This document shows positions 7,878 to 62,452 of a stretch of DNA of 64,000 bases, one piece after another. The stretch's first letter is position 1, and every line of letters begins with the position of its first letter. Source of the stretch: Eledone cirrhosa (lineage: Eukaryota); contig OZ024743.1 of NCBI GenBank assembly GCA_964016885.1, positions 167,524,001-167,588,000 of the forward strand. The letters run 5' to 3'. Both the position numbers and the translations under genes were made by a program. The notes under the pieces were generated by a model. That model ran no database searches and had not been told where the DNA came from. It saw nothing but the letters and a program-made list of their open reading frames with translations.

Positions 7878-8067
7878 CGGCGTGGATTGGCATTATCGGT
7901 AGAGGGTCGGAGGCTATGCATTGACGCATAGAGTTACGGCCCTTGCCATTCTGAGTTCGAATCCCGCCGAGGTTAACTTTGCCTTTCATCCTTACGGGGT
8001 CGATAAAATTAAGTGCCAGTGATGCACTGGTGCATTGCTGGCCTTGTGCCAAAAAGTAGAAACAATT
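7878..8067 (+). mobile_element. tRNA-derived SINE (full length)
   Basis: A box tggcattatcgg, B box gagttcgaatccc, same core and tail as the copies at 28522 and 42455. Confidence 0.85.
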
Positions 8068-11403: not shown

Positions 11404-11636
11404 TATTATTATTATTATTATTATTATTGGCGACCTACGTAGGAAATCGTATTATCGTGAGCTCCGCAAAGGTTTGTTATTTCCGTTTGTTTAAAAATTG
11501 CCATTTATGGAAAATTTTATTGTAAACTGTTTATAAGCACACATACATTGTTTTCCGAAAAGGACACCCAAAAGATTGGGGCCTTGTGCCCAAAATTTTA
11601 ACTTTTATTATTATCCAAACATTTCTTTGAAAAAAA

Positions 11637-13136
11637 ATGGCTAATTCCCCTCTGCACGAAGCAGCTGAAAGCCTTCCTCACAAAATAACACCTCACACCG
11701 ACACCACCATTGTAAATGTTACTACGTTTGCCAACACAAAAAAAAATATAAGCAGTAGCAATATTTTAAATTTGTCTCAGGCAGACATTCATTTCCCGCC
11801 ATTACCAATGACTGCAGGTGTTAAACCCTCCACCACCACCACCACCGCGACAACCACCACCACCACCACCACCGCGACAACAGAAACAAAAGAAGAAAAA
11901 AATAAATTAACTCGTGACGTCGAAATGAAATCAAGCAAAATGGACTCTTCCCCACCAAAGACGACTGACGTCACCACCACCACAACTGAAAATAAAATTA
12001 ATATTAACGATAGCAACAACAACAACAATGACATTATAAAACCGACCCTCAGTTTCGCCATCGTAGCAAAACAATTCGAAGCGTTCACGGTAACTCAAGA
12101 AGATTTAGAAAATGCCAAACAAATGGTAAAGAAAGATGGGTACAGGGTCAGCCTCACCCCCCCACCTAATAAAATGGAGCATCGGCGCCTGTGCACCGTG
12201 TCGTATAGAACAATAAATGTAAAATCGCGCCGAGTGGAACGGGCATCCGAGTCCCAAATCCAAAAAGCTTTGGGACATGTGTGGGCAAGAAAAACCCACA
12301 TCAGACGTGGGCAAAAGTATGGAACCGTGGATGTGTTCTTTGAAACACCAGAGGAGGCTAGAGAACACTCCATGGCCCCATTAAAAAGTGACGACCTCAC
12401 ACTCGTCCCAAGCTATTGTGGCCAGAGACTCGTAAAGGTCAGGGTAACCCACGTTCCACCGGCCATCGAAATTCCCTGGCTAATAGCGGCTGTCCTCGCC
12501 GGCATCGAAGCCAACACGAAAATAATAGCAGTAGCAAAAGAAAAGCAGGAAAACTGGTCCGGATCTGGAATGGAGCTCCTGATCCAAGCGGACCAAAAAA
12601 GCATTGAGGAGATCCCAGAGGTAATAGACCTCACTGACGGCAGCCACCTCACGGTAATTGTCGAGGGCAGAAGACCTAGGTGTGTCGTTTGTGGTGAAGG
12701 AACCCACCTAAGGGCTTTCTGCCCTCAGGCTAAAAGGTTGAGGCCACCTCTCCTACCCACCCCAGTGACACAACCATCAACACCACCAGTAGCAGAGATG
12801 GCAGCAACAACTGTAGCAGCAACAACAGAAGCAACTATAACAGCAACAACCCCAGCAACAGTAGCAAAACGAACACCACTACCACCACCAGCAAAACCAA
12901 CACCACCACCACCCAACGCTTCAGAACTAGCACCAGCGCCTACACCATCCACCACACCACAACCAAAACTAACGGCTGTGGAGGATTTTCCACTCCCCGG
13001 CCTATCACAACTGGAGACAGATTGTGACGACGAGGAGTGGGAAACGATATCCGGAAAAAAAAAAGAAACCAAAAAAGAAAAAATTCTCTTCCTTCCCCCT
13101 CCAAAAACAAAATACAGAAGGAAACAAATAAACTAA
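11637..13136 (+). CDS. Tx1-like ORF1 (nucleic-acid-binding protein with CCHC zinc knuckle)
   Basis: 499-aa ORF with CVVCGEGTHLRAFC (CX2CX4HX4C), an RRM-like segment (YGTVDVFFETPEEA) and a Pro/Thr-rich region. Confidence 0.8.
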   Translation: MANSPLHEAAESLPHKITPHTDTTIVNVTTFANTKKNISSSNILNLSQADIHFPPLPMTAGVKPSTTTTTATTTTTTTTATTETKEEKNKLTRDVEMKSSKMDSSPPKTTDVTTTTTENKININDSNNNNNDIIKPTLSFAIVAKQFEAFTVTQEDLENAKQMVKKDGYRVSLTPPPNKMEHRRLCTVSYRTINVKSRRVERASESQIQKALGHVWARKTHIRRGQKYGTVDVFFETPEEAREHSMAPLKSDDLTLVPSYCGQRLVKVRVTHVPPAIEIPWLIAAVLAGIEANTKIIAVAKEKQENWSGSGMELLIQADQKSIEEIPEVIDLTDGSHLTVIVEGRRPRCVVCGEGTHLRAFCPQAKRLRPPLLPTPVTQPSTPPVAEMAATTVAATTEATITATTPATVAKRTPLPPPAKPTPPPPNASELAPAPTPSTTPQPKLTAVEDFPLPGLSQLETDCDDEEWETISGKKKETKKEKILFLPPPKTKYRRKQIN

Positions 13137-13621
13137 GAAACAAAAAAGTTAGGACAGATATGCCACCATCCACACCAGCATCACCAACCCCATCAACCCA
13201 AACACCAACACCATCACCATCATTAACTCCAACACCACCATCACCTACACCACAAAAGTCACCAAAATGCGAAACAGAAACAAACCCACAACAAACGCAA
13301 ACAAAACAAAACAACCAGAACGATACACACTACACAGCATTAAATTTGAACAACAAGCAATTATTACACTACATCCAACACAACACCAGCATCACAGAAA
13401 AAGACTACACAACAACCCCAAAATTCACACCACCTCCACACATACAAATCACTCGCATCACACAGAAAACGTACATGACACTAAAACAAAAATTCCCCAA
13501 AGACATCGGAGACTTCCGACAAGCACTCTCCAGGAGGATTTATAAGGACATCCTTCCTGAGGAGGCCACAAGCAGTGAAAAGGATGGAAAAGCCGTCCTT
13601 CCCCTACGAGAAGTAAGGTAA
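13055..13621 (+). CDS. ORF1 C-terminal extension in the -1 frame (ORF1b)
   Basis: Open -1 frame KKKRNQKRKNSLPSPSK...KFPKDIGDFRQALSRRIYKD. Conserved at 48051-48635, and homologous to the family 2 segment 54483-54773 (SFPRDVG...SRLLK). Confidence 0.65.
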   Translation, partial: KKKRNQKRKNSLPSPSKNKIQKETNKLRNKKVRTDMPPSTPASPTPSTQTPTPSPSLTPTPPSPTPQKSPKCETETNPQQTQTKQNNQNDTHYTALNLNNKQLLHYIQHNTSITEKDYTTTPKFTPPPHIQITRITQKTYMTLKQKFPKDIGDFRQALSRRIYKDILPEEATSSEKDGKAVLPLREVR

Positions 13622-13655
13622 GTGGTCTTTCCCATCTTTTCCACTCCTTTTCAAC

Positions 13656-16600
13656 ATGACCTCACTCAGAATAGGTAGCATAAATGCACGTGGCTTGGGG
13701 TCGTCATGGAAGCAGGGCCACCTGCTCAACGACCTCAGGTCACTAAACATAGATGTAGTGGCCATCAGCGAGACCAGAATCTCCGAGGCACAGGCTTTCG
13801 CACCGATCTTCGGCGGCTACGATGTGTACGCATCTCCCAGCCGTCCGGGATCGGGGGGAGGAGTTGCTGTGCTTTTTCGGAGAGGTTTGGATCTTGCCAT
13901 ACGGGCCATCTTCATGGACCCAGAAGGTAAGTTGGTGGTGCTGGACGTGACCAGCGGAGACGGGCAAGCTTTCAGGTTAGTGGCCGTCTATGCCCCGACA
14001 GGAGCAGGGCGGCCTGATTTCTTCCGGCGTCTGGAGACCTTTCTTGGAACGTCCCGCTCTTTAGTGTTAGTGGGCGACTGGAACGGGATCTTAGATGCAC
14101 GCTGGGATTGTGTGGGATTAGTGGATAGGGAAGGAGGGTGCAAGAGTCTCACCAACCTGCTCAGACGTTTTGAACTGTCTGACAGGTACCGAATGGATTT
14201 CCCGAATGTACCAATGTGGACTTGGACAAATCGTATAGGGTCATCCAGATCATATCTAGATAGAGTATTTTGTAGGGAAATAGATAGGTCTAGCATAGGC
14301 TGTCCACAATTCAAAATAGTCAGCTACACGGACCACAAATTCGTGATCTGTGTGCTTGACTTAGATAGGCTTCATAGACAAGGACCCGGCTACTGGAAGC
14401 TAAACGCGTCCTTACCAGCGCGCAAGGCCTACAGAGACCGGATTAGCGAACTAGTTAAGCGGGCGTTGACGGGGGCCATCGTCAACAACAAGTGGTGGTT
14501 TGCTCTGAAAAGAGCAATTAGAATAGAGTCCATTAGGTTTAGTAAGACTTTAGCAATAGAGAAAAATAGAGCAGAGGGAGAATTAGTTAGAAAATTAGAT
14601 GAGGCGCTTAGCAAAGGCATCGCGACCGACGTACTTGCGGCGAAATTGGCCCTTGACCAATTCTTCAATGCAAAGCACGAAGGCTGCGTTGTCAGAGCTA
14701 GGGTGCGTGCTCTCAGACACGAGGGGACGAAAGCCGTTCAATGGGCCCGAGTGGCGGAGGCGCGTCGTGGCAACAAAGCCACAATCCGGTCTTTGGTGGA
14801 CCACGACGGGCGCATGCTACTCGATCCCGGGCAAATGTGTGAAGCTTTTCAGCGACACTTCGCTCAACTGTTCGGGCGCAGTGGCGGGCCGGATCGAGGG
14901 ATGGACTTTAGTGTCTACCTCGACGGACTGCCGCGGCTTTCGTCCACTGAGGCGGAGTGTTGCGAAAAGCCGATAACAACCGCTGAAGTACGGGATGCAA
15001 TGAATAGTTGCACAAGGGGTAAATCGCCTGGTTTGGATGGTCTGCCCTATGAACTTTACGTACAAATGCCAAACTTGTTCGGAGGCCTCTTGGCGGACGT
15101 CTACTGCAACTGGCAACAGAACGGGAGTATTCCCAGCTCTGTGAGCCGAGGAGCGGTGGCGCTGCTGAGAAAGGATCCGAACAAGGGGGATAACATAGAT
15201 AATTTTAGGCCCATAACTCTGCTAAACACAGAGTTCAAGATTTTGGCCAAGGTGCTAGCAAAGAGGTTGGCGCTTGTCGTTGGTGGTCTGGTGGGAGAGG
15301 CACAGACATGCGCCATTCCCGACAGATCCATCCACGACAACCTCCACCTCATGCGATACATCGTAGAGAGGGTAGCTAAGGAACCTGGCACGGGTGGGTC
15401 TTTGATCAATTTAGATCAGTCGAAAGCCTTCGATAGGGTCGACCATCGTTACCTAGCGGTAGTCCTGAGGGCGGCTGGCTTTGGGCCCGTCTTCAGAGGC
15501 TGGATCGCTGCCATGCACAGCGACATCTGCTCTGTAGTGAGAGTGAACGGTCACCTTTCGGAACATCATCCGCTCGGTCCGCCAAGGATGTCCCCTCTCG
15601 TCCCTATTGTACGTATTGACTCTCGAGCCATTACTGCACAAACTGGAGACGTTGAGGGGGGTCCCGCGCGAACTAGGATGCGGAAGATCCGTGTCAGCAT
15701 ATGCCGACGATGTCACCGTAGTGGTGTCGAACGCCAAACACATCGAGGCGATCGGCACTACACTAAGAGAATACGAAGCGGTGACAGGAGCAATGATCAA
15801 CCAGGAAAAGTCAGTGGGCCTGCAGCTCGGCACCTGGAGAGGCAGGTCCATGCCGTCCAACAGCGTCGTCGGGCGCTGGACGGACGGACCGGTTAAATTG
15901 CTAGGGGTCTGGTTCGGTCCAGACCTCCAGACGGACAAAAAATGGGACGAGGTGACGAGCAGGGTGGCTTCTCTCACCCAGAAATGGGCCGAGAGAAAGC
16001 TATCCCTGAAAGGTCGAGCGGAGGTGGTGAATGCGTACATCGCATCCGTCATCTACTACCGCCTGACCGTCGTACCTTGTCCTAAGCCCCGCCTGACTGC
16101 GCTGGAGCGTTTGCTCTTTCGCTTCTTGTGGAAGGGACGCGCTCCGATGGTCAGGCGGTCCATCTGTTGTCAACACCCGCTACGTGGAGGGCTGGGCATG
16201 CCGTGGCTGATGATGCGCAGACACGCGCTCAGGCTACGACATCTCCACCTCTTCCTCGACGGTGATCAGGTGTGGTCGCCGTTTGCAAGACACGTTTTTC
16301 CCCAGCTCGTCTCCTTGACGGAGCTGCAGTCCTGGGTTAAGCGAAGACCGAGAGGGAGCGTTTGGAGACTGGAATGTCTTCAGGCGCTCACAGCCCTCGA
16401 CCAATCGGGCAATGTGATCGGTGGAAACTCCACCTTGGCGTTCTATAGGGGATTAGTGGAGGGGAAGAGCGACGACGTACTTGGAGAAACTCTAGGCGTC
16501 GACGAAAATCAACTAGCCAATCTCTTCGGAAGGACTTTCGGGCCGGGGCCTATGGACAACTTCCAGAAATCCCTGGCCTGGCAGTGCTACCGAGGAGCTT

Positions 16601-17066
16601 TGCCAGTTCGGGATAAACTCTACAGGCATGGAGGTGCCGTCAGCCGGGCATGTCCGAGATGCGCGCAGGGCGACGAAACCGTCCTGCACGCACTCGTCCA
16701 GTGTCCGAGCATTGCTGACTTGTGGGTTTATGTCGAACACCTGCTGTCACGTGTAGGACGGATCCAGCTATCAGCTGAGTCCATCGTGAGGATTGCCCCG
16801 CCCCTTCCTTTAGCCTGGAAGGGCAGGCAGTTTTTATCTGTCTGGTGGCCATGGCGAAAGAGATAGTATGGTGGACACGTTTGAAAGGGCTGAAGACGAG
16901 CACTTACCTCTTCGGTGATGCCCTGATTAACTTTTTCAAATTTCATTTGAAAAGGAAAATCAGGGTAGAGAGGGAAGTGCTCTCTTCCCAGCATTTTGTT
17001 GAAAGATGGGTGAGAGAAGCAAGTATGGCCCGAATGAATGGGCCTTCTCTGAGTATGTGTCTGTAA
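13656..17066 (+). pseudogene. Tx1-like ORF2 (APE endonuclease, RT, C-terminal Zn finger), 2 frameshifts
   Basis: SINARGL, AISET, VGDWN, SYLDRV, YTDH; KSPGLDGLP, FRPITLLN, LDQSKAFDRV, AYADD; CPRC..DETVLHALVQC. Frame breaks near 15565 and 16815. Confidence 0.9.
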
Positions 17067-17324
17067 ATTAAAGGTGGAAAACTGGGAGAGGGCACTTGCC
17101 CTGGTGGTCAGGGCCACTGTGGTCTTTTAATGGGCTTTCTCCACAAATGTCCCTTGGAAGTCTCCCCCCTATTGGGGAATTTTTCTTTGTTATTTTATTT
17201 CAACCTCTGTTTTTTTACACGCAGAAATGCCCATTTGTACCGTCCTGTATTGTCCTGTACTGTCCTTAATGTCTACTTTATGTGAACCCTTGTGGTTAAT
17301 AAAGAAAACATTATTATTATTATT

Positions 17325-32638: not shown

Positions 32639-33244
32639 TATATAAATAGAGAGAGAGAGATAAGAATATATATAAAGAGATAAGAAGAAACAGGGCTGTG
32701 TAGTTGCTGGATAAGGTGTATTTATAAATAAGAGGAAAGCAGGAACGGGAACAAATTTTCCTTCATCAGTTGTCTGCTGGGGATCATGGATATTTCTACG
32801 CATTAAAGACAAGATATCTAACCCCAGTGCGTCACTAACTAAATGAAGTTATTGGGAAAAAAAGGGAGAGAGAGAAAAATATATATAACAGAAGGGAAAA
32901 GGGAAGAAAAAGGAAAAAAAACGGAAAACAACAACCCGAAGAGGGAATCCCGAAGCACATGTGTGTGAGCAGCTCGAAGGGAGAGAAAAGATTAAACTCG
33001 ACATCAACTACTGAACTTAAGTCCGAGGTTGTGTGGACGAGAAAAAAAAACACGTCTTCGCAAGAGTAAGTGAGAAAGAGACAGCGAGAGGAACAGGCGA
33101 GACAGAGAGTGAAGTGGTAGCAGAGAGAGGAAGAGTAAAAGTGAGAGGGACAAAGGGAAAGAAAGAAAGGGGAAGAGTTGATAGCAACAAAATAGATAGG
33201 GAGAAAGAGAGAACAGGTCACAGCAAAACTTGATAAAAATATGA

Positions 33245-33285
<41 letters not shown>

Positions 33286-33288
<3 letters not shown>

Positions 33289-35793
33289 TATTTCACCGTT
33301 ATTGTTGTTGTTGTTACTGTTATTTCTACCATTGTGGTTGTTACTTTTATTATGTTTCTTGTTTTTGTTGTGTCTATCATTGATGTTGCTACATGTACTA
33401 TTTCCATTATTACCACTGTGGTTATTGTTGTTGTTGTTCGTATTGTTACCGTTATTACTACTGTGGTCGCTGTTACTGTGTCTGTGGTTAATGTTTCTAT
33501 TATTATTATTATTGTGGTTGTTGTTGTTCTGTCTATCGCTAGTATTATTACCATTATCACTATTTCTCACTTTCCTGCTATTGTTATAGTTATGGCTGTT
33601 ATTTCTATACTCAGAGTTATTGTTTATATTACTACTACCGTTATTATTGTTGTTGTTGTTTACCTTTGCATTCCAGCGTATTTTTGTGAAACACTTTTCC
33701 AGCTCCGTTAGGTTAATCTTTTTGTAGATGGCAAATTTTGGTGGTAGCCGTAGGATTTGTTGTTCTTGTTCACTGATTAAAGTGTTCCCATAGATATTTA
33801 CTGTGTGGTCATTGGTAAATTCTTCCGGTAGTTTTACATCAGTCATACGGATATTGTCGATGTTATCTGGGTATTTTTGAGAATATTCGATTTTCCTTTC
33901 TTGTAGTTTTTTCTTATTCATCCATTCTAATTTCTTATTGAAATGCCTATTGCATTCGTTTCGAGCGTATTCCGTTTCACGTCGGATGGCGCTCTTGAAG
34001 TTATCTCTCTCGTTTGCTGTGATGAGATTTCGGATTTCCTTCCTGTTAATGCGTTTCTGTCTGTAGAGTGCGTTGACTTTTGTGTATGTTGTTCTTTTCA
34101 TATTAACTGTTATTGTGTGTTTTATTTGTTTTAGTCGTTCGGCTTGTGTTTTGTTCAATAATAAATTATTTACTTGTTTTGATATGTTTGTTGTGTATGT
34201 TTTGGAGGAAACACAGTGTTTTAAGAAGCGGATTTGTTCTGTTGTTATTGTAGTTTTTATATAACAGAAAACAGTGTCTTTCAAGAACCTTTCAGCTTGG
34301 CACAAGCTAATGCCGTAGCGGCGATGAATTAGTTTTGCGAGGTTTTTTAGATGAAATCGTGTGTCGAAACAAATATTGTTATACTTGGGGAGGGTCATAT
34401 TTGTGTAATATTGCCAGAATTAATAACAGAACACACTCACTGTTTGGTTGGTTTTCGCTTCTCGCTGTCTTTTATATCGGTAATCTAACTTACTCGGTCC
34501 TCAATGTTGCCATTGACTGACCGACGGTCAAAAATAATACAGATACATATAGACACAAACACATATATATAGTTTATCATAAATCTTTCGTTGCACATCT
34601 GCAACATCGTCAGTGGTGTTATATTTTCCTCCTGTTGTGTTGTATGTCTACGCCATTTTTATTCAGTCTGTCTATATATATATTTATTTATTTGCTTGTT
34701 TGTTTATTTTATTTTGTCTTCTTTGCGCATGCGTTTGCGTGTGTGTATAGTGTTATGTTTGCTGTGTGATGGGTGACTAGTGTGTGTTTATGTGCTTGTT
34801 GTTATTGTGCTTGTGTATGTATTTATTTATTTATTTATCTTATTTTATTTACTTATTTATACTTCTCTTAGGTCAGTGTTGTTTGTTTGGGTGTTGTTGT
34901 TATTCCATTCATTCTTTCTGTTTAGCTTTGGTCTTCTAATTTCTATTTCACTGGCCTCTCTGATTTGCCTATCTGCTGGGTCATTTCTATGTTTAGATAT
35001 TATTCTAATTTCTATGTTGTCTATGTTACCCTTATGTTGTTGTCTAACATGTTCGTATAGTACTGACCCGTTTTTTCGTCCTTTTAGTTCCCCCCAGTGT
35101 TGGTCTATCCATTCACCTATGCTAAGAGCTGTCTCACCTATGTATGTTGTTGTCATGTTTCTGCAAGTACCCTCTGTACATCTTATGCTATAGACTACGT
35201 TTCTAGTTTTACAGTTTATCCGGGGGTCACCTTACATATGATACATTTCCTATTGGTACAGTGGGTTTTCTTAAAAGGGTAGGTTTTGCTGATCAGGGAT
35301 TTTATGGTGGTTCCTGGCTTTTCTACCACCTTTATTTTTAAGTGGGTCTTTCTCAGGGCCTTTCTACACTGGTTAGCTAATTTTCCTCCAGGGGTGCGTC
35401 CACAAACATGACACTCTTGTATCTCTGGTTGTCGTACCATGAGGTGGCTTTCCCTATCTTATGTCTAGCCCTATCTAAGCTATTCCATGATTTGCTCCTG
35501 TATAATGGGCAAATTCCTTTCATGTCCAGTTCTATGAGGGTCTTATACTTTTCCATGGCTCCTTCGTATACTCTGACTCTGTCTCTTTGATTGTAGCCAG
35601 AGAACTGCATGCGGTTGATGAAGTGTTGGATGTGTCTTTCCATTTCTGTTGGGTCGCACATGCGGGACACATTCTTCATCGCTCGTACCAAATCTGCGAT
35701 CAGAATATTAAACTTAGCACTACTGGACATTGCTGAGTTTTGAGTATCAGGTATTTGGAGGCCATGGGTTTAGTATAGTGTGAGTGGAGAATT
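33286..35793 (-). mobile_element. Penelope-like element, inverted arm: ORF 3' part, pseudo-LTR, then ORF N-terminus
   Basis: 34373-35793 is the reverse complement of 37672-39098. It continues into the ORF starting at 34398 (MTLPKYNNICFD...QILRLPPKFAIY...EKCFTKIRW, then Asn-rich) until (TA)n at ~33285. Confidence 0.88.
34576..34617 (-). ncRNA. Minimal hammerhead ribozyme in PLE pseudo-LTR (inverted copy)
   Basis: Reverse complement of the motif at 38854-38895. Confidence 0.7.
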
Positions 35794-36109
35794 CAGCAAA
35801 ACCTACCCTTTTAAGAAAACCCACTGTACCAATAGGAAATGTATCATATGTAAGGTGAACCCCCGGATAAACTGTAAAACTAGAAACGTAGTCTATAGCA
35901 TAAGATGTACAGAGGGTACTTGCAGAAACATGACAACAACATACATAGGTGAGACAGCTCTTAGCATAGGTGAAAGGATAGACCAACACTGGGGGGAACT
36001 AAAAGGACGAAAAAACGGGTCAGTACTATACGAACATGCTAGACAACAACATGACGGTAACATAGACAACATAGAAATTAGAATAATATCTAAACATAGA
36101 AATGACCCA
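35794..36109 (+). mobile_element. Extra PLE GIY-YIG fragment at the inversion junction
   Basis: Duplicates 38176-38491 (SKTYPFKKTHCTNRKCIIC...YIGETALSIGERIDQH); ends in (TA)n. Confidence 0.85.
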
Positions 36110-36189
36110 GTATATATATATGCATATATATATGCATATATAGTTAGTTTTACGAGGTTTTTTATATGAAATCGTGTGTCGAAACAACA

Positions 36190-39098: not shown

Positions 39099-39126
39099 AT
39101 GCATATATATATATGTATATATACAA

Positions 39127-39344: not shown

Positions 39345-42300
39345 GGTTTCTTTATTGGCCACAAGGGCTAACATGAAGAGAAACATTACAGTCGGTACAG
39401 AACGGTACAGGACGATACAAAGTGGGTTTTGGCAGTGTAAAAAAGGTTATAACAAGAAGATAGAAATATCAAAAAAATTCAAACAACAAAAATTCCTCAA
39501 TATGGGGGAAACTTCCGAGAGTCACTCGTGGCGAAAACCACACAAAAGACCACGGCCACCCTGACCAGCAGGGCAACGCCCTCTCTCAGTTTTCCAATCC
39601 TCAGTCTACAGGCGCATACTCAGAGCGGTCCCGTTCACTCGGACCAGACTCGCCACTTTCACCCACCTTTCAACAAACTTATTTGAAGACAGCACTTGTC
39701 TCTCCACCCTGATTTTCCTCTTCAAGTGAAATTTGAAAAAGTTAATCAGGGATTCGCCGAAGAGGAAAGTGTCCGTCTTCAATCCTTTCAACCTTGTCCA
39801 CTATACAATCTCTTTCGGCATGGCCACCAGGCAGATGAAAACTGTCTGCCCTTCCTCCTCCTTAAAGGAGGACGGTGGGGCTATCTGCACAATGGACTCA
39901 GTCGATAACCGGTTCCGTCCTACACGTGACAGCAAATATTCGACATAGCTCCACAAGTCAGCAATACTCGGGCACTGAACGAGTGCGTGCACAACGGTTT
40001 CGTCGCTCTGTGCGCATCTCGGACAGGTTCGGCTGACGGCACTTCCGTGCCTATAGAGCTTATCCCGAACCAGCAACGCTCCCCGGTAGCACTGCCAGGC
40101 CAGGGATTTCTGGAAGTTATCCATAGGCCTCTGGCTGAAAGTTCTCTTGAAGAGAGTGAACAGCTGATCGTCTTCGACTCCCAGGGTCTCCCCGAGAATG
40201 TCGTCACTCTTCCCCTCCACTAGTCCTCTATAGAACGCCGAGGTGGATGTTCCACCGATACTAGTGCCCAGCTGGTAGAAGGCTGTGAGCGCTTGGAGAC
40301 ATTCCAGCTTCCAAGCGCTATCCCTCGTTCTTTTCATGATCCAGGACTGCAGCTCCGTTAATGAGACGAACTGGGAAAAAAAAATGTCTGGCAAACGGTG
40401 ACCACACCTGTTCACCGCCAAGGAAGCACCAGAGATATCGCAGCCTCAGCGCGTGTTTGCGCATCATCAGCTACGGCATGCCCAGCTCTCCACGCAACGG
40501 GTGTTGACAGCACATGGATTGTCTGACCATGGGAGCACGTCTCTTCCATAAAAAGAGGAAGAGGGGGCGCTCCATTTTTGTCAGAGTGCGTCACCTCGTC
40601 CCAGTTTTTGTCCGTCTGGAGGTCCGGACTGAACCAAACCCCCAGCAATTTAACCGGTCAGTCCGTCCAGTGCCCGACGACGCTGTTGGGCGGCATGGAC
40701 CTGCCTCTACAGGTGCCGAACTGCAGGCCCACCGACTTTTCCTGGTTGATCATTGCTCCTGTAACCGCCTCTTATTCGCTTAGTGTAGTGCCGATCGCCT
40801 CGATGCGTTTGGCGTTCGACACCACTACAGTGACATAGTCTGCATATGCTGACACGGGTCTTCCGGGACCCGCCCTCAACGTCTCCAGTTTGTGCAGTAA
40901 TGGCTCGAGAGTCAATACGTACAACAGGGACGAGAGGGGACATCCTTGGTGGACCGAGCGCATAATGTTGAACGGTTCCGAAAGGTGACCGTTCACTCTC
41001 ACTACAGAGCATATGTCGCTGTGCATGGCAGCGATCCAGCCTCTGAAGACCGAATCTTGGCTTTGTTGCCACGACGCGCCTCCGCCACCCGGGCCCATTG
41101 AACGGCTTTCCTCCCCTCGTGCCTGAGAGCACACACCCTATCTCTGACAACGCAGACTGGGTGCTTTGCATTGAAGAATTGGTCGAGGGCCAATTTTGCC
41201 GCAAGCGCCTCGTCTAGTTTTCTAACCAGTTCTCCGTCTGCTCTATTTTTCTCTATTGCTAACGCCTTACTAAACCTAATGGACTCTATTCTAATCACAC
41301 TTTTCAGGGCAAACCACCATTTGTTGTTGACTGTGGCCCCCGTCAATGCCCGCTTAACTAGTTCGCTAATCCGGTCTCTGTAGACTTTGCGCACTGTTAA
41401 CAACGCGTTTAGTTTCCAGTAGCCGGGTCCCTGTCTATGAAGCCTATCTAACTCAACGACACAGATCACGAATTTGTGGTCCGTGTAGTCGACTATCTTC
41501 AATTGTGGACAGCCTATGCTAGACCTATCTATTTCCCTACAAAATACCCTACCTAGATATGATCTGGATGACCCGATGCGGTTTGTCCATGTCCACATTG
41601 GCACATTCGGGAAATCCAAGCGGTACCTGTCAGACAGTTGAAACCGTCTGAGCAGGTTTGCGAGGCTTTTACACACTCCCCCCTATCCGCTAATCCCACA
41701 CAGTCCCAGCGTGCATCTAAGATCCCGTTCCAGTTGCCCACTAACACTAAAGAGCGGGACGTTCCAAGAAATTCCAGACGCCGGAAGAAATCAGGCCGCC
41801 CTACTTCTGTCGGGGCCTAGACGTCACTAGCCTGAAAGTTTGCCCGTCTCTGCTGGTCACGTCCAGTACCATCAACTTACCTTGAAGATGGCCAGTATGG
41901 CGAGATCCAAGCCTCTCCGAAAAAGCACAGCAACTCCTCCCCCCGATCCTGTACGGCTGGGAGATGCGTATACATCGTAACCGCGGAATATCGGTGCGAA
42001 GGCTTGTGCTTCGGAGATTCTGGTCTCGTTAATGGTCACCACATCTATGTTTAATGACCTGATGTCGTTGAGCAGGTGGCCCTGCTTCCATTACGACCCC
42101 AGGCCACGCACATTTATGCTGCCTATTCTGAGTAAGGTCATGTTGAAAAGGAGTGGAAAAAGATGGGAAAGACCACTTACCTCACTTCTTGTGGAGGAAG
42201 GATGGTTTTTCCGTCCTTCTCACTGTTTGTGGCCCCCTCGGGAAGGTTGTCTTTATAAATCCTCCTGGAAAGTGTTTATCGGAAGTCTCCGATGTCATTG

Positions 42301-47300: not shown

Positions 47301-50250
47301 AGCCTATCTAAGTCAAGCACACAGATCACGAATTTGTGGTCCGTGTAGCTGACTATCTTGAATTGTGGACAGCCTATGCTAGACCTATCTATTTCCCTAC
47401 AAAATACTCTATCTAGATATGATCTGGATGACCCTATGCGATTTGTCCAAGTCCACATTGGTACATTCGGGAAATCCATTCGGTACCTGTCAGACAGTTC
47501 AAAACGTCTGAGCAGGTTGGTGAGACTCTTGCACCCTCCTTCCCTATCCACTAATCCCACACAATCCCAGCGTGCATCTAAGATCCCGTTCCAGTCGCCC
47601 ACTAACACTAAAGAGCGGGACGTTCCAAGAAAGGTCTCCAGACGCCGGAAGAAATCAGGCCGCCCTGCTCCTGTCGGGGCATAGACGGCCTCTAACCTGA
47701 AAGCTTGCCCGTCTCCGCTGGTCACGTCTAGCACCACCAACTTACCTTCTGGGTCCAGGAAGATGGCCTGTATGGCAAGATCCAAACCTCTCCGAAAAAG
47801 CACAGCAACTCCTCCCCCCGATCCCGGACGGCTGGGAGATGCGTACACATCGTAGCCGCCGAAGATCGGTGCGAAAGCCTGTGCTTCGGAGATTCTGGTC
47901 TCGCTGATGGCCACTACATCTATGTTTAGTAACCTGAGGTCATTGAGCAGGTGGCCCTGCTTCCATGACGACCCCAAGCCACGCGCATTTATGCTGCCTA
48001 TTCTGAGTGAGGTCATGTTGAAAAGGAGTGGAAAAGATAGGAAAGACCACTTACCTTACTTCCCCTACGAGAAGTAAGGTTTTTCCATCCTTTTCACTGC
48101 TTGTGGCCTCCTCAGGAAGGATGTCCTTATAAATCCTCCTGGAGAGTGCTTGTCGGAAGTCTCCGATGTCTGTGGGGAATTTTTGTTTTAGTGTCATGTA
48201 CGTTTTCTGTGTGATGCGAGTGATTTGTATGTGTGGAGGTGGTGTGAATTTTGGGGTTGTTGTGTAGTCTTTTTCTGTGATGCTGGTGTTGTGTTGGATG
48301 TAGTGTAATAATTGCTTGTTGTTCAAATTTAATGCTGTGTAGTGTGTATCGTTTTGGTTGTTTTGTTTTGTTTGCGTTTGTTGTGGGTATGTTTCTGTTT
48401 CGCATTTTGGTGACTTTTGTGGTGTAGGTGATGGTCGTGTTGGGGTTAATGATGGTGATGGTGTTGGTGTTTGGGTTGATGGGGTTGGTGATGCTGGTGT
48501 GAATGGTGGCATATCTGTCCTAACTTTTTTGTTTGTTAATTTATTTGTTTCCCTCTGTATTTTGTTTTTGGAGGGGGAAGGAAGAGAATTTTTTCTTTTT
48601 TGGTTTCTTTTTTTTTTCCTGATACCATTTCCCACTCATCGTCGTCACAATCTGTCTCCAGTTGTTATAGGCCGGGGAGTGGAAAATCCTCCACAGCCGT
48701 TAGTTTTGGTTGTGGCATGGTGGATGGTGTAGGCGCTGGTGCTAGTTCTGAAGCGTTGGGTGGTGGTGGTGTTGGTTTTGCTGGTGGTGGTGGTGGTGTT
48801 GGTTTTGCTACTGTTGCTGGGGTTGTTGCTGTTATAGTTGCTTCTGTTGTTGCTGCTACAGTTGTTGCTGCCATCTCTACTACTGGTGGTGTTGATGGTT
48901 GTGTCACTGGGGTGGGTAGGAGAGGTGGCCTCAACCTTTTAGCCTGAGGGCAGAAAGCCCTTAGGTGGGTTCCTTCACCACAAACGACACACCTAGGTCT
49001 TCTGCCCTCGACAATTACCGTGAGGTGGCTGCCGTTAGTGAGGTCTATTACCTCTGGGATCTCCTCAATGCTTTTTTGGTCCGCTTGGATCAGGAGCTCC
49101 ATCCCAGATCCGGACCAGTTCTCCTGCTTTTCTTTTGCTATTGTTATTATTTTCGTGTTGGCTTCGATGCCGGCGAGGACAGCCGCTATTAGCCAGGGAA
49201 TTTCGATGGCCGGTGGAACGTGGGTCACCCTGATCTTTACGAGTCTCTGGCCACAATAGCTTGGGACGAGTGTGAAGTCGTCACTTCTTAATGGGGCCAT
49301 GGAGTGTTCTCTAGCCTCCTCTGGTGTTTCAAAGAACACGTCCACGGTTCCATACTTTTGCCCACGTCTGATGTGGGTTTTTCTTGCCCACACATGTCCC
49401 AAAGCTTTTTGGATTTGGGACTCGGATGCCCGTTCCACTCTGCGCGATTTTACATTTATTGTTCTATACGACACGGTGCATAGGCGCCGATGCTCCATTT
49501 TATTAGCTGGGGGGGGGGGGGGGTGAGGCTGACCCTGTACCCATCTTTCTTTACCATTTGTTTGGCATTTTCTAAATCCTCCTGAGTTACCGTAAATGCT
49601 TCGAACTGTTTTGCTACTCTGGCGAAACTGAGGGGGGTTTTTATAATGTCATTGTTGTTGTTGTTGCTATCGTTAATATTAATTTTAGTTTCAGTTGTGG
49701 TGGTGGTGACGTCAGTCGTCTTTGGTGGGGAAGAGTCCATTTTGCTTGATTTCATTTCGACATCACGAGTTAATTTATTTTTTCTTCTTTTGTTTCTGTT
49801 GTAGCGGTGGTGGTGGTGGTGGTGGTTGTCGTGGTGGTGGTGGTGGTGCAGGCTTTAACACCTGCAGTCATTGGTAATGGCGGGAAATGAATGTCTCCCT
49901 GAGACAAATTTAAAATATTGCTAGTGCTTATATTTTTTTTTGCGTTGGCAAACGTAGTAACATTTACAATGGTGGTGTCGGTGTGAGGTGTTAATTTGTG
50001 AGGAAGGCTTTCAGCTGCTTTGTGCAGAGGTGAATTAGCCATTTTTTTCAAAGAAATTTTTTTGATAATAATAAAAGTTTAAATTTTGGGCACAAGGCCC
50101 CAATCTTTTTGGGTGTCCTTTTCGGAAAACAATGTATGTGCGCTTATAAACAGTTAACAATAAAATTTTCCATAAATGACAATTTTTAACAAACGGAAAT
50201 AACAAACCTTTGCGGAGCTCACGATGATACGATTTACTACGTAGGTCGCC
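44366..50250 (-). mobile_element. Tx1/L1-clade LINE family 1, full length (copy T4)
   Basis: Near-identical inverted copy of T1. ORF1 ~50042-48051 is broken at homopolymers and by one stop; ORF2 48016-44611 has frameshifts; (TAA)n on both sides. Confidence 0.92.
44611..48016 (-). pseudogene. Tx1-like ORF2 of T4 (APE-RT-Zn finger), frameshifted
   Basis: 675-aa open segment 45989-48016 plus downstream pieces carrying AYADD and CPRC...HALVQC. Confidence 0.9.
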
Positions 50251-53700: not shown

Positions 53701-56225
53701 TGTTTAGCTTCCAGTAACCAGGTCCTAACCTACGCGTCTTATCTAGGTCGACCATACAGATCACAAGCTTGTGATCTGAATAGGCGACCGTTTCAAAACG
53801 TGGACAGCTTACACCATTTCTGTCTATTTTCCTAATGAATATCCTGTCTATATACGATCTAGATGACCCTATGCGGTTAGCCCAGATCCACACTGGCGCA
53901 TTAGGGAAATCTAGTCGGTACCTGTCAGACAGTTGGAACTGGCTGATCAGGTTCTTGAGGCTTTTGCACCCCCCGCTCCTATCGGATACTCCCACACAGT
54001 CCCAGCGTGCGTCTAAGATGCCGTTCCAGTCCTCCGCTAACAGTAAAGGGCGAGACGTACCCAGAAAAGCTTCCAGGCGTCTAAAGAAGTCCGGCCGTCC
54101 TGCCCCAGTAGGAGCATAGACGGCCACCAGTCTAAAGGCACCACCTTCATTATTGTTCACGTCCAGGACCACCAACTTCCCGTCCGGGTCCCGGAAGATC
54201 GACCTTACCTCGAGATCCAGGCCTTTCCTAAACAGCACTGCCACCCCGCCTCCCATTCCCGGCCGGCTAACAGATGCAAAGATCTGATAGTCATCGAAAA
54301 TGGGGGCTAGTGCGCGCATGTCGGAAATCCTGGTCTCGTTGACTGCAATTACATCCATTTCTATAGACCTGAGGTCGTTGAGCAGGTGACCCTGCTTCCA
54401 GGACGATCCCAGGCCTCGAACATTTAAACATCCTACTCTTAATACGGCCATGTTGGTAGGTTAAACAGAGAGAGAGGAAGGTTTACTTACCTTCCGGGCT
54501 CTTGTGAAGGTCGGATTGTTCGACCTCCATAGTTAGTGGGGTTTCTTTTGGCAACCCCTTTAAAAGTCTTGAAGTGGGTTTTACGTTCGGGGTTCCCACG
54601 TCCCGAGGAAAGCTGTCTCGTATTTCTTTGAATATCTCGAGCGACATTCGCACCAGAACCAAATCTTCCGGCACGCGAAATGTGCTCGATTTAAAAATTT
54701 CCCACTCTTTTTGTATATTTTCACTTCGTGCTACGAGGGCCATCAGTTCCTTGTTGGCCCCCCTGACGATCACGAAGTTTTGTATGTTTTGTAGGTGTGA
54801 TTTTATTTGTTTGCGTGGCTGTGGTGGTGATGGTTTTGGTGGTGTTGTTTCGGTTGTATCTGTGTTTTTTGTGAGTGCGGTGTCTGTGGTTTCAGATGTT
54901 TGTGTGTATATTTGTTCTTGCGTCTGTTTCGGTTGTTTGCGTTTGGGGGGATTCTGGTGATGGTGATGGTGGTGTTGATGTTGGTGTTATTGGAGAGATG
55001 TTTGCGTGGGTCGTGTCTGCGTTTTTTATTGTGGGTGCTTCTGTGCTTTGTTGAGTTTTTTTTTATTTTTGTGTTTCCTTTTTTGTATTTTGGGGAATTT
55101 TGGATTTCCCTCATTTTCACTACTGGTAGATGAGGGGTCTATGTCTGTAAGTGTGTCTGTATGCATGTTTAAGGTTTTATTGGTGTGTGTATTTGGGGGG
55201 GTGGGAGGGGGAATTTGACAGCCTTCCTCGTTTCCCTCCTGGGTGGTCAATGTTGGTGGTGGTCTTTCTATTGGTGTTGTTGTTGGTGGTTTTGCCGGTG
55301 CAGGTGTTGGTTGTGGACCTCGCCCCGGCGTCGGCAGCAGTGGAGCCTTTCGACCCCTTGTCTCTTTCAGCAGTTGAGGGCAGAAGGCTCGCAAATGGGT
55401 TTTTTCCCCACAAACAAAACACTGCGGCCTTTTGCCTTCGGTCATAATGTGAATGACAGTCCCATTCTGAAGGCGAATGTGGTCTGGGATTGTCTTCACA
55501 TTCTCGGGCCTGATCTGGAGAAGGATCTCCAGGTCAACCCCGGACCAGTCCTCTCTGACCGTTCTCGTCACTTCTATAGGGACTGTATCCGTGCCCTCCA
55601 CAATCACACATCCCAGAAGCCACCACATGTCAAGTCCTGGTGGGATTCTGGGAATGCGGAGACGGGCCGTTCTTTTTCCCATGTGGGAGGGGTACATTAT
55701 GAGCTTGCTGGTTTTGCAAGGAGTCATCGCGTGTTTCATAGCGAGGGCTTCTGACTTGAACAACACCGAAATGGTGCCGTACTGTCTGCCCCTCTCTATG
55801 TACTGGGTGTCTTCTCTGATGCACCTCAGCGCGACTTCGACATCTTCTTGTGGGATTAACGCTGCCTTTTTGGTTTGTGCTGAGATGCATCTATAATGCA
55901 CCGTTTTGCGCTCCACTGCCTCAATAGCTTCTACCTAGACAGTTAAGTTGGCCAAGTTTGCTCTTGCTTGATGAGCTTCCATGCCTGGGTCAACTTTTCA
56001 TTTTTGTTTGAGAGGTCCATGTTTTTTTTTTTCGTAAATTTTTTAACATGTAAAAAAAAGTTCAAATATTTGGGCCTTTTGGCCCAAATATTATACTTTC
56101 CCCTTCACGGGGCAAAGTTTAAGGGCTTATATCCCTTACACAACAAGAAATATTTAACAACAAATAATTTAAACAGGCAAATAAAGCGACTTACTGAGAG
56201 CGAGCAAAATACGTCCGCTTAGACC
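50757..56225 (-). mobile_element. Tx1/L1-clade LINE family 2, apparently full length (copy T5)
   Basis: ORF1 with CFVCGEKTHLRAFC (~56020-54483, disrupted); ORF2 54451-51029 (CLNVRGL, KSPGLDGLP, QGCPLS, AYADD, CPRC); (TAA)n on both sides. Confidence 0.9.
51029..54451 (-). pseudogene. Tx1-like ORF2 of T5, disrupted
   Basis: Pieces 53453-54451, 52739-53356 and 51029-52594. Confidence 0.88.
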
Positions 56226-59597: not shown

Positions 59598-62452
59598 GCA
59601 CCTGTTCACCGTTTAGGCACAATATCTAGAGATGCCGTAGCCTCACCGCATGTTTGTGCATCAATAGCCGCATTGAGGTTGCTGGCAGCAGATGGACCGC
59701 CTCACCAACGGAACCTGTCCCCTCAACAAGAGGTTGACAAGGAGCCGCTCCAATGTGGCGAAGCGCGGACGGGGGCAAGGCACGACAGTCAGGTGGTAGT
59801 AGATGACGGACGCAATGAATGCGTTCACCAGCTCCATCCGATATTTCATGGAAAGCTTCCTCTCGGCCCATTTCTGGGTGAGACTGGCTACCCTGAACGT
59901 CACCTCGTACCAATTCTCCTCCCCCTGGACGTCTGGTCCGAATCAAACCCGAGTAACTTTACCGCTCAATCTGTCCAGCGCCCGACGATGCAGTTAGACG
60001 ACATGAACTTGCCTCTCTATGTGCCGAGCTGCAAGCATACCGACATTTCCGGATTCAGTTTCGCTCCCGTCAACCTTTCATATTCCTCCAAGGGAGTGTC
60101 GACAACTTCGATTTCCGAGGTGTTTGACATCATCACCGTGATTTCCGCGTATGCCGACATAGCCCTTCCACATCCTGGTTCGAGCGGGATGCTCTGCAAC
60201 ATCTCCAGCTTCCGCAGTAAAGGCTCGAGAATCAATACGTACAGACGGGAGGAGTGAGGGCACCCTTGACGGACTGATCGGGAGATATGAAATGGTTCAT
60301 AAAAGTGGCCATTAACTTTGACTACTGAACAGGTGGCGCTGTGCATTGCAGTGATCCAGCATCTGAAGACGGGATCTTTTGCAGCACCTAGCTTCAGCCC
60401 GGAAGAGACGCAGTAGGCCATCGAGGTAGGGACTGAAGTCCGCCACTGTCTCCAACCCACTACTCCCCTCGAACTGCCGAGCAATGTGCTAGCGAAAGGC
60501 CTCACACATCCCCCTGGAATCAGTCAGCTCGCGTCCATCTCGATCCGTCAAAGACTGAATTGTGGTTTTGTTACTATGCTGCACTCCGCCACTCGGGCTC
60601 ATCGAACAGCTTTGGTTCCCCGAGCTCTGACAATGCAGCCTTCGTGTTTCGCATTGAAATAATTTTCTAATTTCATTCTCGCCGCTAGCACGTTAGTTGC
60701 AATGCCACTACAAATAGCCTTATCTAATTTAGCTACCAGCCCCCCCCCCCCCTTTTATTTCTCTCTAACGCTACTTATTTGCTAAAACCTATCAAAGTTA
60801 CTCTAATCTCTCTTTTGAGAGACCCCCCCCCCCCACGGATTGTTGATGACCTTCCCTGTCAACTTTTGCTTAAACTTTTACTTGACCCGGTCTCTGTAAG
60901 TCATACGTGCCGGAAACGACATATTCAGCTTCCAGTAACCAGGTCCTAACCTGCATGTCTTATTTAGGTCAACCTTACAGATCACAAACTTGTGGTCTGA
61001 ATAGGCGACCGTTTGAAAATCTAGACAACCTATACTATCCTTATCTATTAACTTAATGAAAAACCTATCGATATACGATATTGATGACCCTGTGCGGTTG
61101 GTCCAGATCCATACTGGTGCGTTAGGGAAATCTAGTCGGTACCTATCAGACAGTTGGAACTGGCTGATCATGTACTTAAGGCTTTTGAACCCCCTGCTGC
61201 TACCAGCTACTCCCACACAATCTCAGCGTGCGTCTAAGATGCCGGTCCAGTCCCCAGCTAACAGTAAAACGCGAGACGTTCCAAGAAAGGCTTCCACGTG
61301 CAAAAAGAGGTCCGGCCGTCTAACCCGGTCGGGGCAGAGATGGCCACTAGTCTAAAGGCACCAACTTACCGTCCAGGTCTAGGAAGATCCACCTTACCTC
61401 CAGATCCAGGCCTTTCCTAAACAACACTGCCAACCCCATCTCCCATTCCCTGTCGACTAAAAGAAGCGATTATCTGATAGTCGTCGAAATTGGGGGCTAG
61501 TGCGCGCATGTCGGCAATCTTGGTCTTGCTGACGACAATCACATCCATATTTAGCGACCTTCGGTCATTGAGCAGGCAACCCTGCTTCCAGGGCGAATCC
61601 AGGCCACGAACATTTAAATATCCTATTCTTAGGACGGCCTTGTAGGCAGGCTAAAGGAGCAGAAGAAAGGTTTACGTACCTCCCGGGGTCTTGTGGAGGT
61701 CGAGTTGTTCGACCTCCATGGTTGGTAGAGTTTCCATTGGGAACCCCTTTAAGAGTCTACTCGAGGCTTTCACATTCGGGGTCCCCACGTCGTCAGGGAA
61801 GTTCTCCCCAATGTTTTTGTACGTTTTTATTGGCATCCGCATCATCAGCAGTGTTTGGGGCACTTTTTTTTCTTTTTTGCTTTTTGTGGTCCTCCCTTAT
61901 CTTCACTCGGAGAAGTGGAGGAACTGGTGTCTGGGACCTCTGTGTCAGAGGGGAGTGGGAGTGTGTTTACGGATGGGTGAATGTTGCTCTGTGTGTGTTT
62001 AAAAGAGAAGGGGAGGTTGTTTGGGTGACTCCCTTGGTGGTTTGAATGGTCTCTATTGTTGTTTCTTTTGCTGTTGCTGCTGTTGGTGCTTGTGTTGTTT
62101 TTTGTCCCGGCATCGGTGTTGGCAGCAATGGAGATTTTTGACCCCTTACATTTTTGAGTTGAAGGCAGAAGGCTCTTAAGCCTCCACAGACGAAACAATA
62201 CGGCCTTTTGCCCCCAGTCATTATGTGTAGGACCATCCCGTTTTGGAGGCGGATATGGTCCGGGAATTTTATATCTTCCGGCCTGATCTGAAGAAGTATC
62301 TCCTGGTCAACCCCGGACCAGTCCTCCCTGGCTGTCTTCATTACCTCGACCGGGACAGTATCTGTCCTCTCAACGATCACGCATTCCAGGAGCCTCCACA
62401 TGTCTAGGCCTGGGGAAATCCCATGAATGCAGACTCTCACTGATCTTTGCAG
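59598..62452 (-). mobile_element. Tx1/L1-clade LINE family 2, degenerate with deletions (copy T7)
   Basis: ORF1 remnant (GLDMWRLL, CFVCG), FPDDVGTPNVK, APE and RT remnants similar to T5. Confidence 0.85.

Follow-up and report, generated by a model that had tools for sequence, protein, structure and literature searches.

The 64,000-nucleotide (nt) stretch of Eledone cirrhosa DNA analyzed here (assembly GCA_964016885.1, contig OZ024743.1, positions 167,524,001 to 167,588,000 of the forward strand; hereafter the window) contains T1, a full-length Tx1-like long interspersed element (LINE) with two open reading frames (ORFs). At the end of its ORF1 lies a 5' splice-site motif, AAG/GTAAGT (the slash marks the splice boundary), which overlaps the stop codon and precedes the start of ORF2. 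Comparison of this junction among related elements supports that the donor-like motif is a real, selected signal. A first-pass annotation of the window had described a splice donor opening a candidate mini-intron between the two ORFs; the donor stood, being conserved down to 41% ORF2 identity, whereas the fusion intron and its in-frame acceptor were left unsupported.

The donor motif at the ORF1 stop

The element and the junctions considered are the following:

11429..17309, plus strand: T1, full-length Tx1-like LINE of family F1, about 5.88 kb; (ATT)n at both sides, nested in another repeat, ends matching T4 and other copies
11637..13621, plus strand: ORF1, a single gene with a CX2CX4HX4C knuckle and the stop TAA at 13619-13621; the T1 copy is frameshifted at an A-run near 13051-13083
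13656..17066, plus strand: ORF2, with APE endonuclease, reverse transcriptase (RT) and zf-RVT; own ATG at 13656; two frameshifts in T1
13615..13623, plus strand: 5' splice-site motif AAG/GTAAGT, GT at 13618-13619, phase 2, overlapping the ORF1 stop
13626..13651, plus strand: pyrimidine tract directly 3' of the donor, in all subfamilies of this genome and absent there in family A
48003..48057, minus strand: T4 junction, donor GT at 48054 and CAG, as in T1
42128..42183, minus strand: T3 junction, GAG/GTAAGT, GT at 42180 (42180-42128 is 53 nt)
54433..54493, minus strand: F2a junction, AAG/GTAAGT, GT at 54490, phase 1, ORF1 end Glu-Gly-Lys-stop, ORF2 ATG at 54451
61623..61682, minus strand: F2b junction, decayed, GAG/GTACGT (61679), ORF2 ATG lost
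13924..13932, plus strand: second AAG/GTAAGT, in the endonuclease region (Glu-Gly-Lys-Leu codons), GTRAG in five of seven aligned copies

Only two further junctions were found in the 200 kb beside the window. Across the genome, GGTRAGT stood at the junction in 90 of the 93 distinct contexts compared, and the remaining three were one base off; these contexts were selected for resemblance to F1, F2 or distant proteins and are not a random sample. On the sense strand this motif occurs one to three times per 5-7 kb element plus flank; the chance expectation is 0.56-0.67 per shuffled element, or about 0.004-0.006 per 45-nt window. When subfamily representatives were aligned, G/GTAAGT was invariant in nine out of nine, against only two of the 43 other columns. 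These invariant bases match positions -1 to +6 of the consensus for donors exactly, and A-G is preferred at -2/-1. The donor lies 13-40 nt upstream of the ORF2 ATG in every family that has it.

Seven subfamilies were distinguished in the genome (F1, F1b, F2, F2c, F3, F4 and F4b). ORF1 ends in Val-Arg-stop in F1 and F1b, with the donor in phase 2, and in Gly-Lys-stop in F2, F3, F4 and F4b, with the donor in phase 1; these phase counts exclude F2c, which is represented only by broken copies. Compared to F4, F1b carries 43 extra bases immediately 5' of the donor. A more distant relative, family A, came from a scan of prokaryote assemblies, which detected tandem eukaryote-like arrays of this clade in CAXXMW01; 37 of 40 loci there were family A, one was family B and two were distant (loci from the best 80 of 137 matches, with 69 matches within that assembly). 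Family A shows 41-42% ORF2 identity to F, saturation at four-fold sites (25-29%) and a homologous ORF1. At its junction the order is stop codon, G/GTAAGT and ORF2 ATG, with the donor one base after the stop, the ATG 13 nt past the GT, and no pyrimidine tract. Thus, the motif is not protein-coded, since it stands in phase 2 in F1/F1b, in phase 1 in F2/F3/F4 and 1 nt past the stop in family A. The conservation of GTRAGT relative to the neighbouring positions therefore extends further than the first-pass annotation had claimed, to a relative at 41% identity.

Could the motif have no function, being simply inherited among young subfamilies and matched by coincidence in family A? The F subfamilies do have a common ancestry (57% four-fold identity between F1 and F3), the stop codon contributes part of the motif, the second AAG/GTAAGT persists within coding sequence, and family B has no donor at the junction. 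Seven contiguous invariant bases in three reading contexts at saturated divergence, with a chance of around 0.005 per 45-nt window, nevertheless make this explanation quite improbable.

That the motif serves something other than U1 (a site for DNA binding, an internal ORF2 promoter element, or a re-initiation signal at the ORF2 AUG), with an incidental likeness to a donor, is a little easier to sustain, although still improbable. The location 13-40 nt from the ORF2 ATG in every family with the motif would fit such a role, and a functional donor in the 5' untranslated region (UTR) of human L1 is kept because it falls within a RUNX3 site (PMC5860796). By contrast, the invariant bases coincide with the donor consensus. 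Moreover, a second donor, GTRAGT, follows the ORF2 stop in families A and B (after 14 nt in A and 40 nt in B), and it varies between A and G at +3, as donors do.

The acceptor side and the search for spliced copies

13667..13669, plus strand: CAG, the proposed acceptor, within ORF2 Leu-Arg codons; it keeps the frame in F1/F1b, is out of frame in F4/F4b, and is replaced by AAG in F2/F3

The first-pass annotation had noticed that removal of the GT...CAG segment 13618-13669 (52 nt) joins AG+A (Arg) in the ORF2 frame, and this is correct, as is the same arrangement in T4 (48054-48003) and T3 (42180-42128) when both junctions are read. In family 2 its reading was also accurate: GAAG/GTAAGT at 54490 is in phase 1, with an in-frame TAG 58 nt downstream and an out-of-frame AAG earlier, and GGAG/GTACGT stands at 61679. 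Its model that a 52-58 nt intron fuses ORF1 to ORF2 while the unspliced RNA transposes did not hold up equally well. Given the junctions compared here, such a fusion is largely refuted as a general mechanism, and we consider it very improbable.

In family A the stop precedes the donor, so that an ORF1-ORF2 polyprotein is impossible. F4 and F4b have the same Leu-Arg codons and CAG as F1, but with a phase-1 donor, so that use of the CAG would shift the frame and meet a stop in the very next codon; for this reason, frame compensation between donor phase and acceptor, considered for F1 versus F2, was dropped. Earlier YAGs are found 36 nt from the donor in F3, 39 nt in F4b and 30 nt in F2c. The ORF2 ATG is retained throughout apart from the decayed F2b, mostly with an A at -3. 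In support of fusion, an in-frame YAG is the first one past the tract in F1, F1b and F2, and there is a further in-frame TAG in F3 (53 nt) and F4 (59 nt). However, most subfamilies offer an in-frame AG somewhere, since AGs at several offsets are provided by the conserved Arg-Ile/Val-Gly codons, and its recurrence is weak support for fusion. As judged from the aligned junctions, the acceptor-side AGs are no more than expected by chance, stemming from the Leu-Arg-Ile/Val-Gly codons at the start of ORF2, with no conservation of frame.

If a fusion RNA existed, it should appear as genomic copies, because the same RNA would make the RT, which acts with cis preference. Copies precisely lacking the segment were searched for in F1 with a two-flank pattern (gap of 0-8 versus 50-62), which covers the 52-nt and 57-nt acceptors and leaves out the 61-nt acceptor, F1b and F4. 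None had a gap of 0-8, against 2726 with a gap of 50-62. In F2/F3 there was one short-gap match against 1285, and none was precise (0/1286): the sole short-gap copy has lost 54 nt, with GA closing the deleted segment at a GTA microhomology, and carries two other non-splice deletions. Overall, precise loss was found in 0 of 4011 pattern-matched copies, whereas spliced RNAs account for around 2% of full-length L1 insertions (PMC5860796). The absence of spliced copies is not proof alone, as a canonical-looking intron is likewise retained in every one of the 43 family A 3' ends examined. The arrays, in turn, may grow by DNA recombination.

Assembled run contigs were also inspected (four runs on 13250-14250 and two on 12600-17300), and no joint from 13617 was present among the 15 of 77 and 15 of 31 joints listed (lowest depth 11); contigs drop rare forms, and no weight is given to this result. 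The spacer is crossed unspliced by an X6 contig (517 nt, 13309-13825) and by a depth-78 X5 contig, none of the six runs being on record as RNA. These two runs, from two studies and with two organism labels, have a common dominant variant with an 8-base ORF2 insertion at window position 15561, as if one broken copy dominates. A search with ORF1 for proteins of 1156-3300 amino acids (aa) retrieved none, which is a weak test. Splicing of these LINEs is neither demonstrated nor excluded.

Other splice-like signals were observed around the two start codons. In F3 and F4b (loci L108 and L215), the pyrimidine tract ends with a CAG one base 5' of the ORF2 ATG, an arrangement not conserved in F1, F2 or F4; paired with an upstream donor, this CAG could yield an ORF2-only RNA like human SpORF2. 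Donor-like GTAAGT/GTGAGT motifs are present near the 5' end of several subfamilies, around 2.1-2.2 kb before the ORF2 ATG (L220, L215, L108, L148, L161 and L173), and a CAG lies just 5' of the ORF1 ATG in some family A subfamilies, a combination that makes a 5' UTR intron possible. A variant ORF2 start, known from a loose contig end, was discarded, as no such element was found in the genome.

Possible roles of the donor

17153..17224, plus strand: U-rich 3' UTR tract closed by a CAG (17222-17224), which is a candidate distant acceptor for F1/F1b; F2, F2c, F3, F4 and F4b keep the tract and lack the AG

The reading that we favour, and hold tentatively, is that the donor is a copia-like U1 site at the ORF1/ORF2 border. 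The U1 small nuclear ribonucleoprotein would bind the donor at the end of ORF1, and splicing of a minority of the transcripts to an acceptor far downstream would remove ORF2 and produce an ORF1-only mRNA. Most of the RNA would remain unspliced, to be translated into ORF2p from its own AUG and to act as template for new copies. The purpose would be to make more ORF1p than ORF2p.

The motif itself, its conservation at three positions relative to the stop, the kept ATG and the unspliced genomic copies are observed; U1 binding, splicing, the acceptor used and the purpose belong to the proposal. A donor just past the stop leaves ORF1 whole, and therefore only downstream sequence is removable. A candidate acceptor exists in the 3' UTR of F1, F1b, A and B: that at 17224 in F1/F1b, 74 nt before AATAAA, is as strong as those of A and B, which lie beyond the second donor (237-263 nt in A, with 39 of 43 ends matched and overlapping loci counted twice; 144 nt in B). 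The second donor of A and B with its strong acceptor indicates that the clade keeps working-looking splice signals. In family A both donors are less than 50 nt after a stop, and a splice junction within 50 nt past a stop would trigger no nonsense-mediated decay. Family B has a strong donor 216 nt inside ORF2, which could be a stand-in for the donor at the end of ORF1. An RNA making no ORF2p would be kept out of the genome by cis preference (PMC5860796).

Several observations weigh against this proposal. No spliced RNA was seen, and no genomic copy was found in which the end of the F1 ORF1 is linked to the acceptor at 17224. Past the U-rich tract there is no AG in F2, F2c, F3, F4 and F4b, so a universal 3' UTR acceptor was dropped; no strong acceptor is common to all subfamilies of this genome among the aligned copies. 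The acceptor of A and B is fully explained as the partner of the second donor, and the evidence from family A comes from one assembly. In addition, on inspection the junction showed no donor motif in family B (ORF2 identity of 41% to F, 48% to A), nor in eleven more distant loci, of which one is L181 and ten are from metagenomes, at 25-30%. A tree built by a quick method grouped F with (A, B) with an SH-like approximate likelihood ratio test support of 100, so the donor would be either ancestral and lost in B, or gained twice.

Alternatively, U1 might bind without splicing and shield the bicistronic full-length RNA against cleavage and polyadenylation at early sites, or govern its retention, export or level. 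We regard this as a close rival, held with somewhat less confidence, and it and ORF1-only splicing are not mutually exclusive. Both had been side alternatives of the first-pass annotation, in the form of a distant acceptor and of protection against premature polyadenylation, and they are the readings that remain. Binding without splicing makes an acceptor unnecessary, and covers F2, F2c, F3, F4 and F4b. It also accommodates the pyrimidine- or U-rich tract 3' of the F donor and of the second donor of A and B, the layout of TIA-1-type U1 enhancers being a donor followed by a U-rich tract. The tract indeed appears to fit a U1 enhancer better than an acceptor tract, because it stops 16 nt short of the CAG, and in A and B the second donor is followed by similar tracts. 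Furthermore, AATAAA or ATTAAA occurs within 400 nt upstream of ORF2 in six of seven F representatives, and in the Arabidopsis element EVD the unspliced RNA is protected from early termination by U1 (PMC5580714). On the other hand, no AATAAA/ATTAAA is found within ORF2 in F1, F1b, F4, F4b and A, the upstream ones are often Asn-Lys codons, and the precise location at the stop is not explained. Evasion of HUSH as the purpose was dropped as unlikely, since the protection from HUSH studied in PMC8770142 was independent of the 5' splice site.

Returning to ORF1-only splicing, a broader version is held with slightly more reserve: a clade-wide programme resembling exons and introns. It would combine the ORF1-end donor, the further donor that some families have past ORF2, and an acceptor in the 3' UTR, so that a single element would generate ORF1-only, bicistronic and unspliced genomic RNAs. 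According to the current view, the excess of ORF1p over ORF2p derives from inefficient translation of ORF2 off one unspliced RNA, and splice sites in LINEs are harmful or incidental. If the proposal is true, a control of the ORF1p:ORF2p ratio in the style of copia and retroviruses would have evolved in an element without long terminal repeats (LTRs) and been held across saturated divergence.

The 3' ends of A and B show two further features. The canonical-looking 3' UTR intron is retained in every copy examined (L148:8460-9300, L161, L164, L173, L145 and L144:4430-5200), and a stretch of around 250 nt past the first poly(A) signal is conserved from A to B, although their four-fold identity is 43%, with no Rfam match (L148:8980-9230 and L144:4940-5170).

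The elements and their comparison with known systems

17285..17303, plus strand: 3'-terminal stem-loop with loop CTTGT, followed by AATAAA

T1 belongs to the L1 group, as it has a distinct upstream ORF1, no LTRs, and a 3' polyadenylation signal with a simple tail, and it shows Tx1-like target specificity. In the loci examined, (ATT)n borders T1 and T4 on either side, is found at the 3' end of copies of F1-F4, and occurs with head-to-tail arrays. The tree, built among these elements with the same quick method, places F, A and B in a single clade. ORF2 is 1139 aa long in intact copies and contains an N-terminal APE domain, an RT and a C-terminal cysteine-rich domain (PF03372, PF00078 and PF13966); its best solved relative is human L1 ORF2p (E 1e-51, residues 5-855), and the sole named protein with a close match comes from Octopus sinensis (64% along a short segment). 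A separate 'ORF1b' frame, or a programmed ORF1a/ORF1b frameshift, was rejected, because the A-run frameshift belongs to T1 and 11 of 30 close copies have a single uninterrupted ORF1 of at least 460 aa with the same stop.

The family is young and large, with 1937 candidates for the T1 junction in the 3.0 Gb assembly, the best 40 at 99-100% identity, and 3133 for that of family 2. With thousands of copies, many of them intact, it is tractable for RNA data. F3 has many intact copies, of around 5.84 kb, in head-to-tail arrays, and looks recently active judging from the intact ORF1 and ORF2 of many copies; at G000:C1:423365218-423418069 (L106 and L107), ten F3 copies are in direct tandem, with a period of around 5.84 kb and short (ATT)n between them. 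Assembly CAXXMW01, labelled as a bacterial metagenome-assembled genome, contains around 18 contigs of mostly intact head-to-tail LINEs with a period of 6.4-6.8 kb (L144-L180, L183 and L226-L255). No simple-repeat target was seen between the units of these arrays, the contigs are likely host DNA, and their form is reminiscent of telomeric retrotransposons. No relative was found in viral contigs.

The 3' stem-loop, with loop CTYGT, has compensating stems across F1, F2/F3, A and B (in the window, 17285-17297, and 50770-50782 and 44379-44391 on the minus strand). The same hairpin is found at the end of a short repeat (8039-8051) and within the F1 5' UTR (11579-11591), and its sharing suggests a pair of LINE and short interspersed element, and a captured tail. 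Rfam gave no match in the window, in five loci or in the 3'/5' end region of family A. Elsewhere in the window, 33004-38611 holds an inverted pair of around 1.4 kb (34370-35793 / 37672-39101, 98%); its open frames, 471 and 492 aa long, gave no match in Pfam.

The target preference and architecture are like those of the microsatellite-targeting LINEs of the Tx1 group (PMC3747384), with an APE-RT-zinc finger ORF2, a knuckle in ORF1, insertion into short repeats, tandem arrays and a 3' stem-loop. They differ in that the target here is (ATT)n, and the portion of that article available mentions no splice signal at the ORF junction. L1-Tx1 elements have been counted as active in Octopus vulgaris (PMC13282606). 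In the open literature searched (listings and starts of abstracts, with subscription papers, Repbase reports and supplements outside the scope) no publication describing a donor conserved at the stop of a LINE ORF1 was found. Kibi and Koshi are family names among the microsatellite-targeting Tx1-group LINEs.

Human L1 provides a second comparison through SpIREs and SpORF2 (PMC5860796, PMC2896524), as L1-group elements with splice sites in an RNA that transposes unspliced. Both RNAs are bicistronic with an inter-ORF spacer, of 63 bp in L1 and 35 nt from stop to ATG in T1. The L1 donors, however, are located in the 5' UTR and remove the promoter or ORF1, and their products are found as genomic copies; the T1-type donor is at the ORF1 stop, where only sequence on the ORF2 side is removable, and has no precise genomic product among the 4011 copies.

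The closest parallel is with Ty1/copia elements, which have a U1-type donor between the structural and the enzyme genes, as in Drosophila copia, which splices out the whole POL, and in barley BARE1 and Arabidopsis EVD, with the donor at the GAG/POL border (PMC5580714). In these elements the unspliced RNA is the genome, and U1 has in EVD a second role, independent of splicing. In contrast to the LINE described here, they have LTRs and a single long ORF, and their spliced RNA has been demonstrated; the LINE has two ORFs, a stop and a separate ATG, no clear acceptor in most subfamilies, and is known from its sequence alone. On the favoured reading, the donor at the LINE ORF1 stop would be a new variation on a known, copia-type strategy and not a mini-intron fusion. 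A donor selected at this position would mean that a LINE uses the spliceosome or U1 in its own cycle, as copia elements do.

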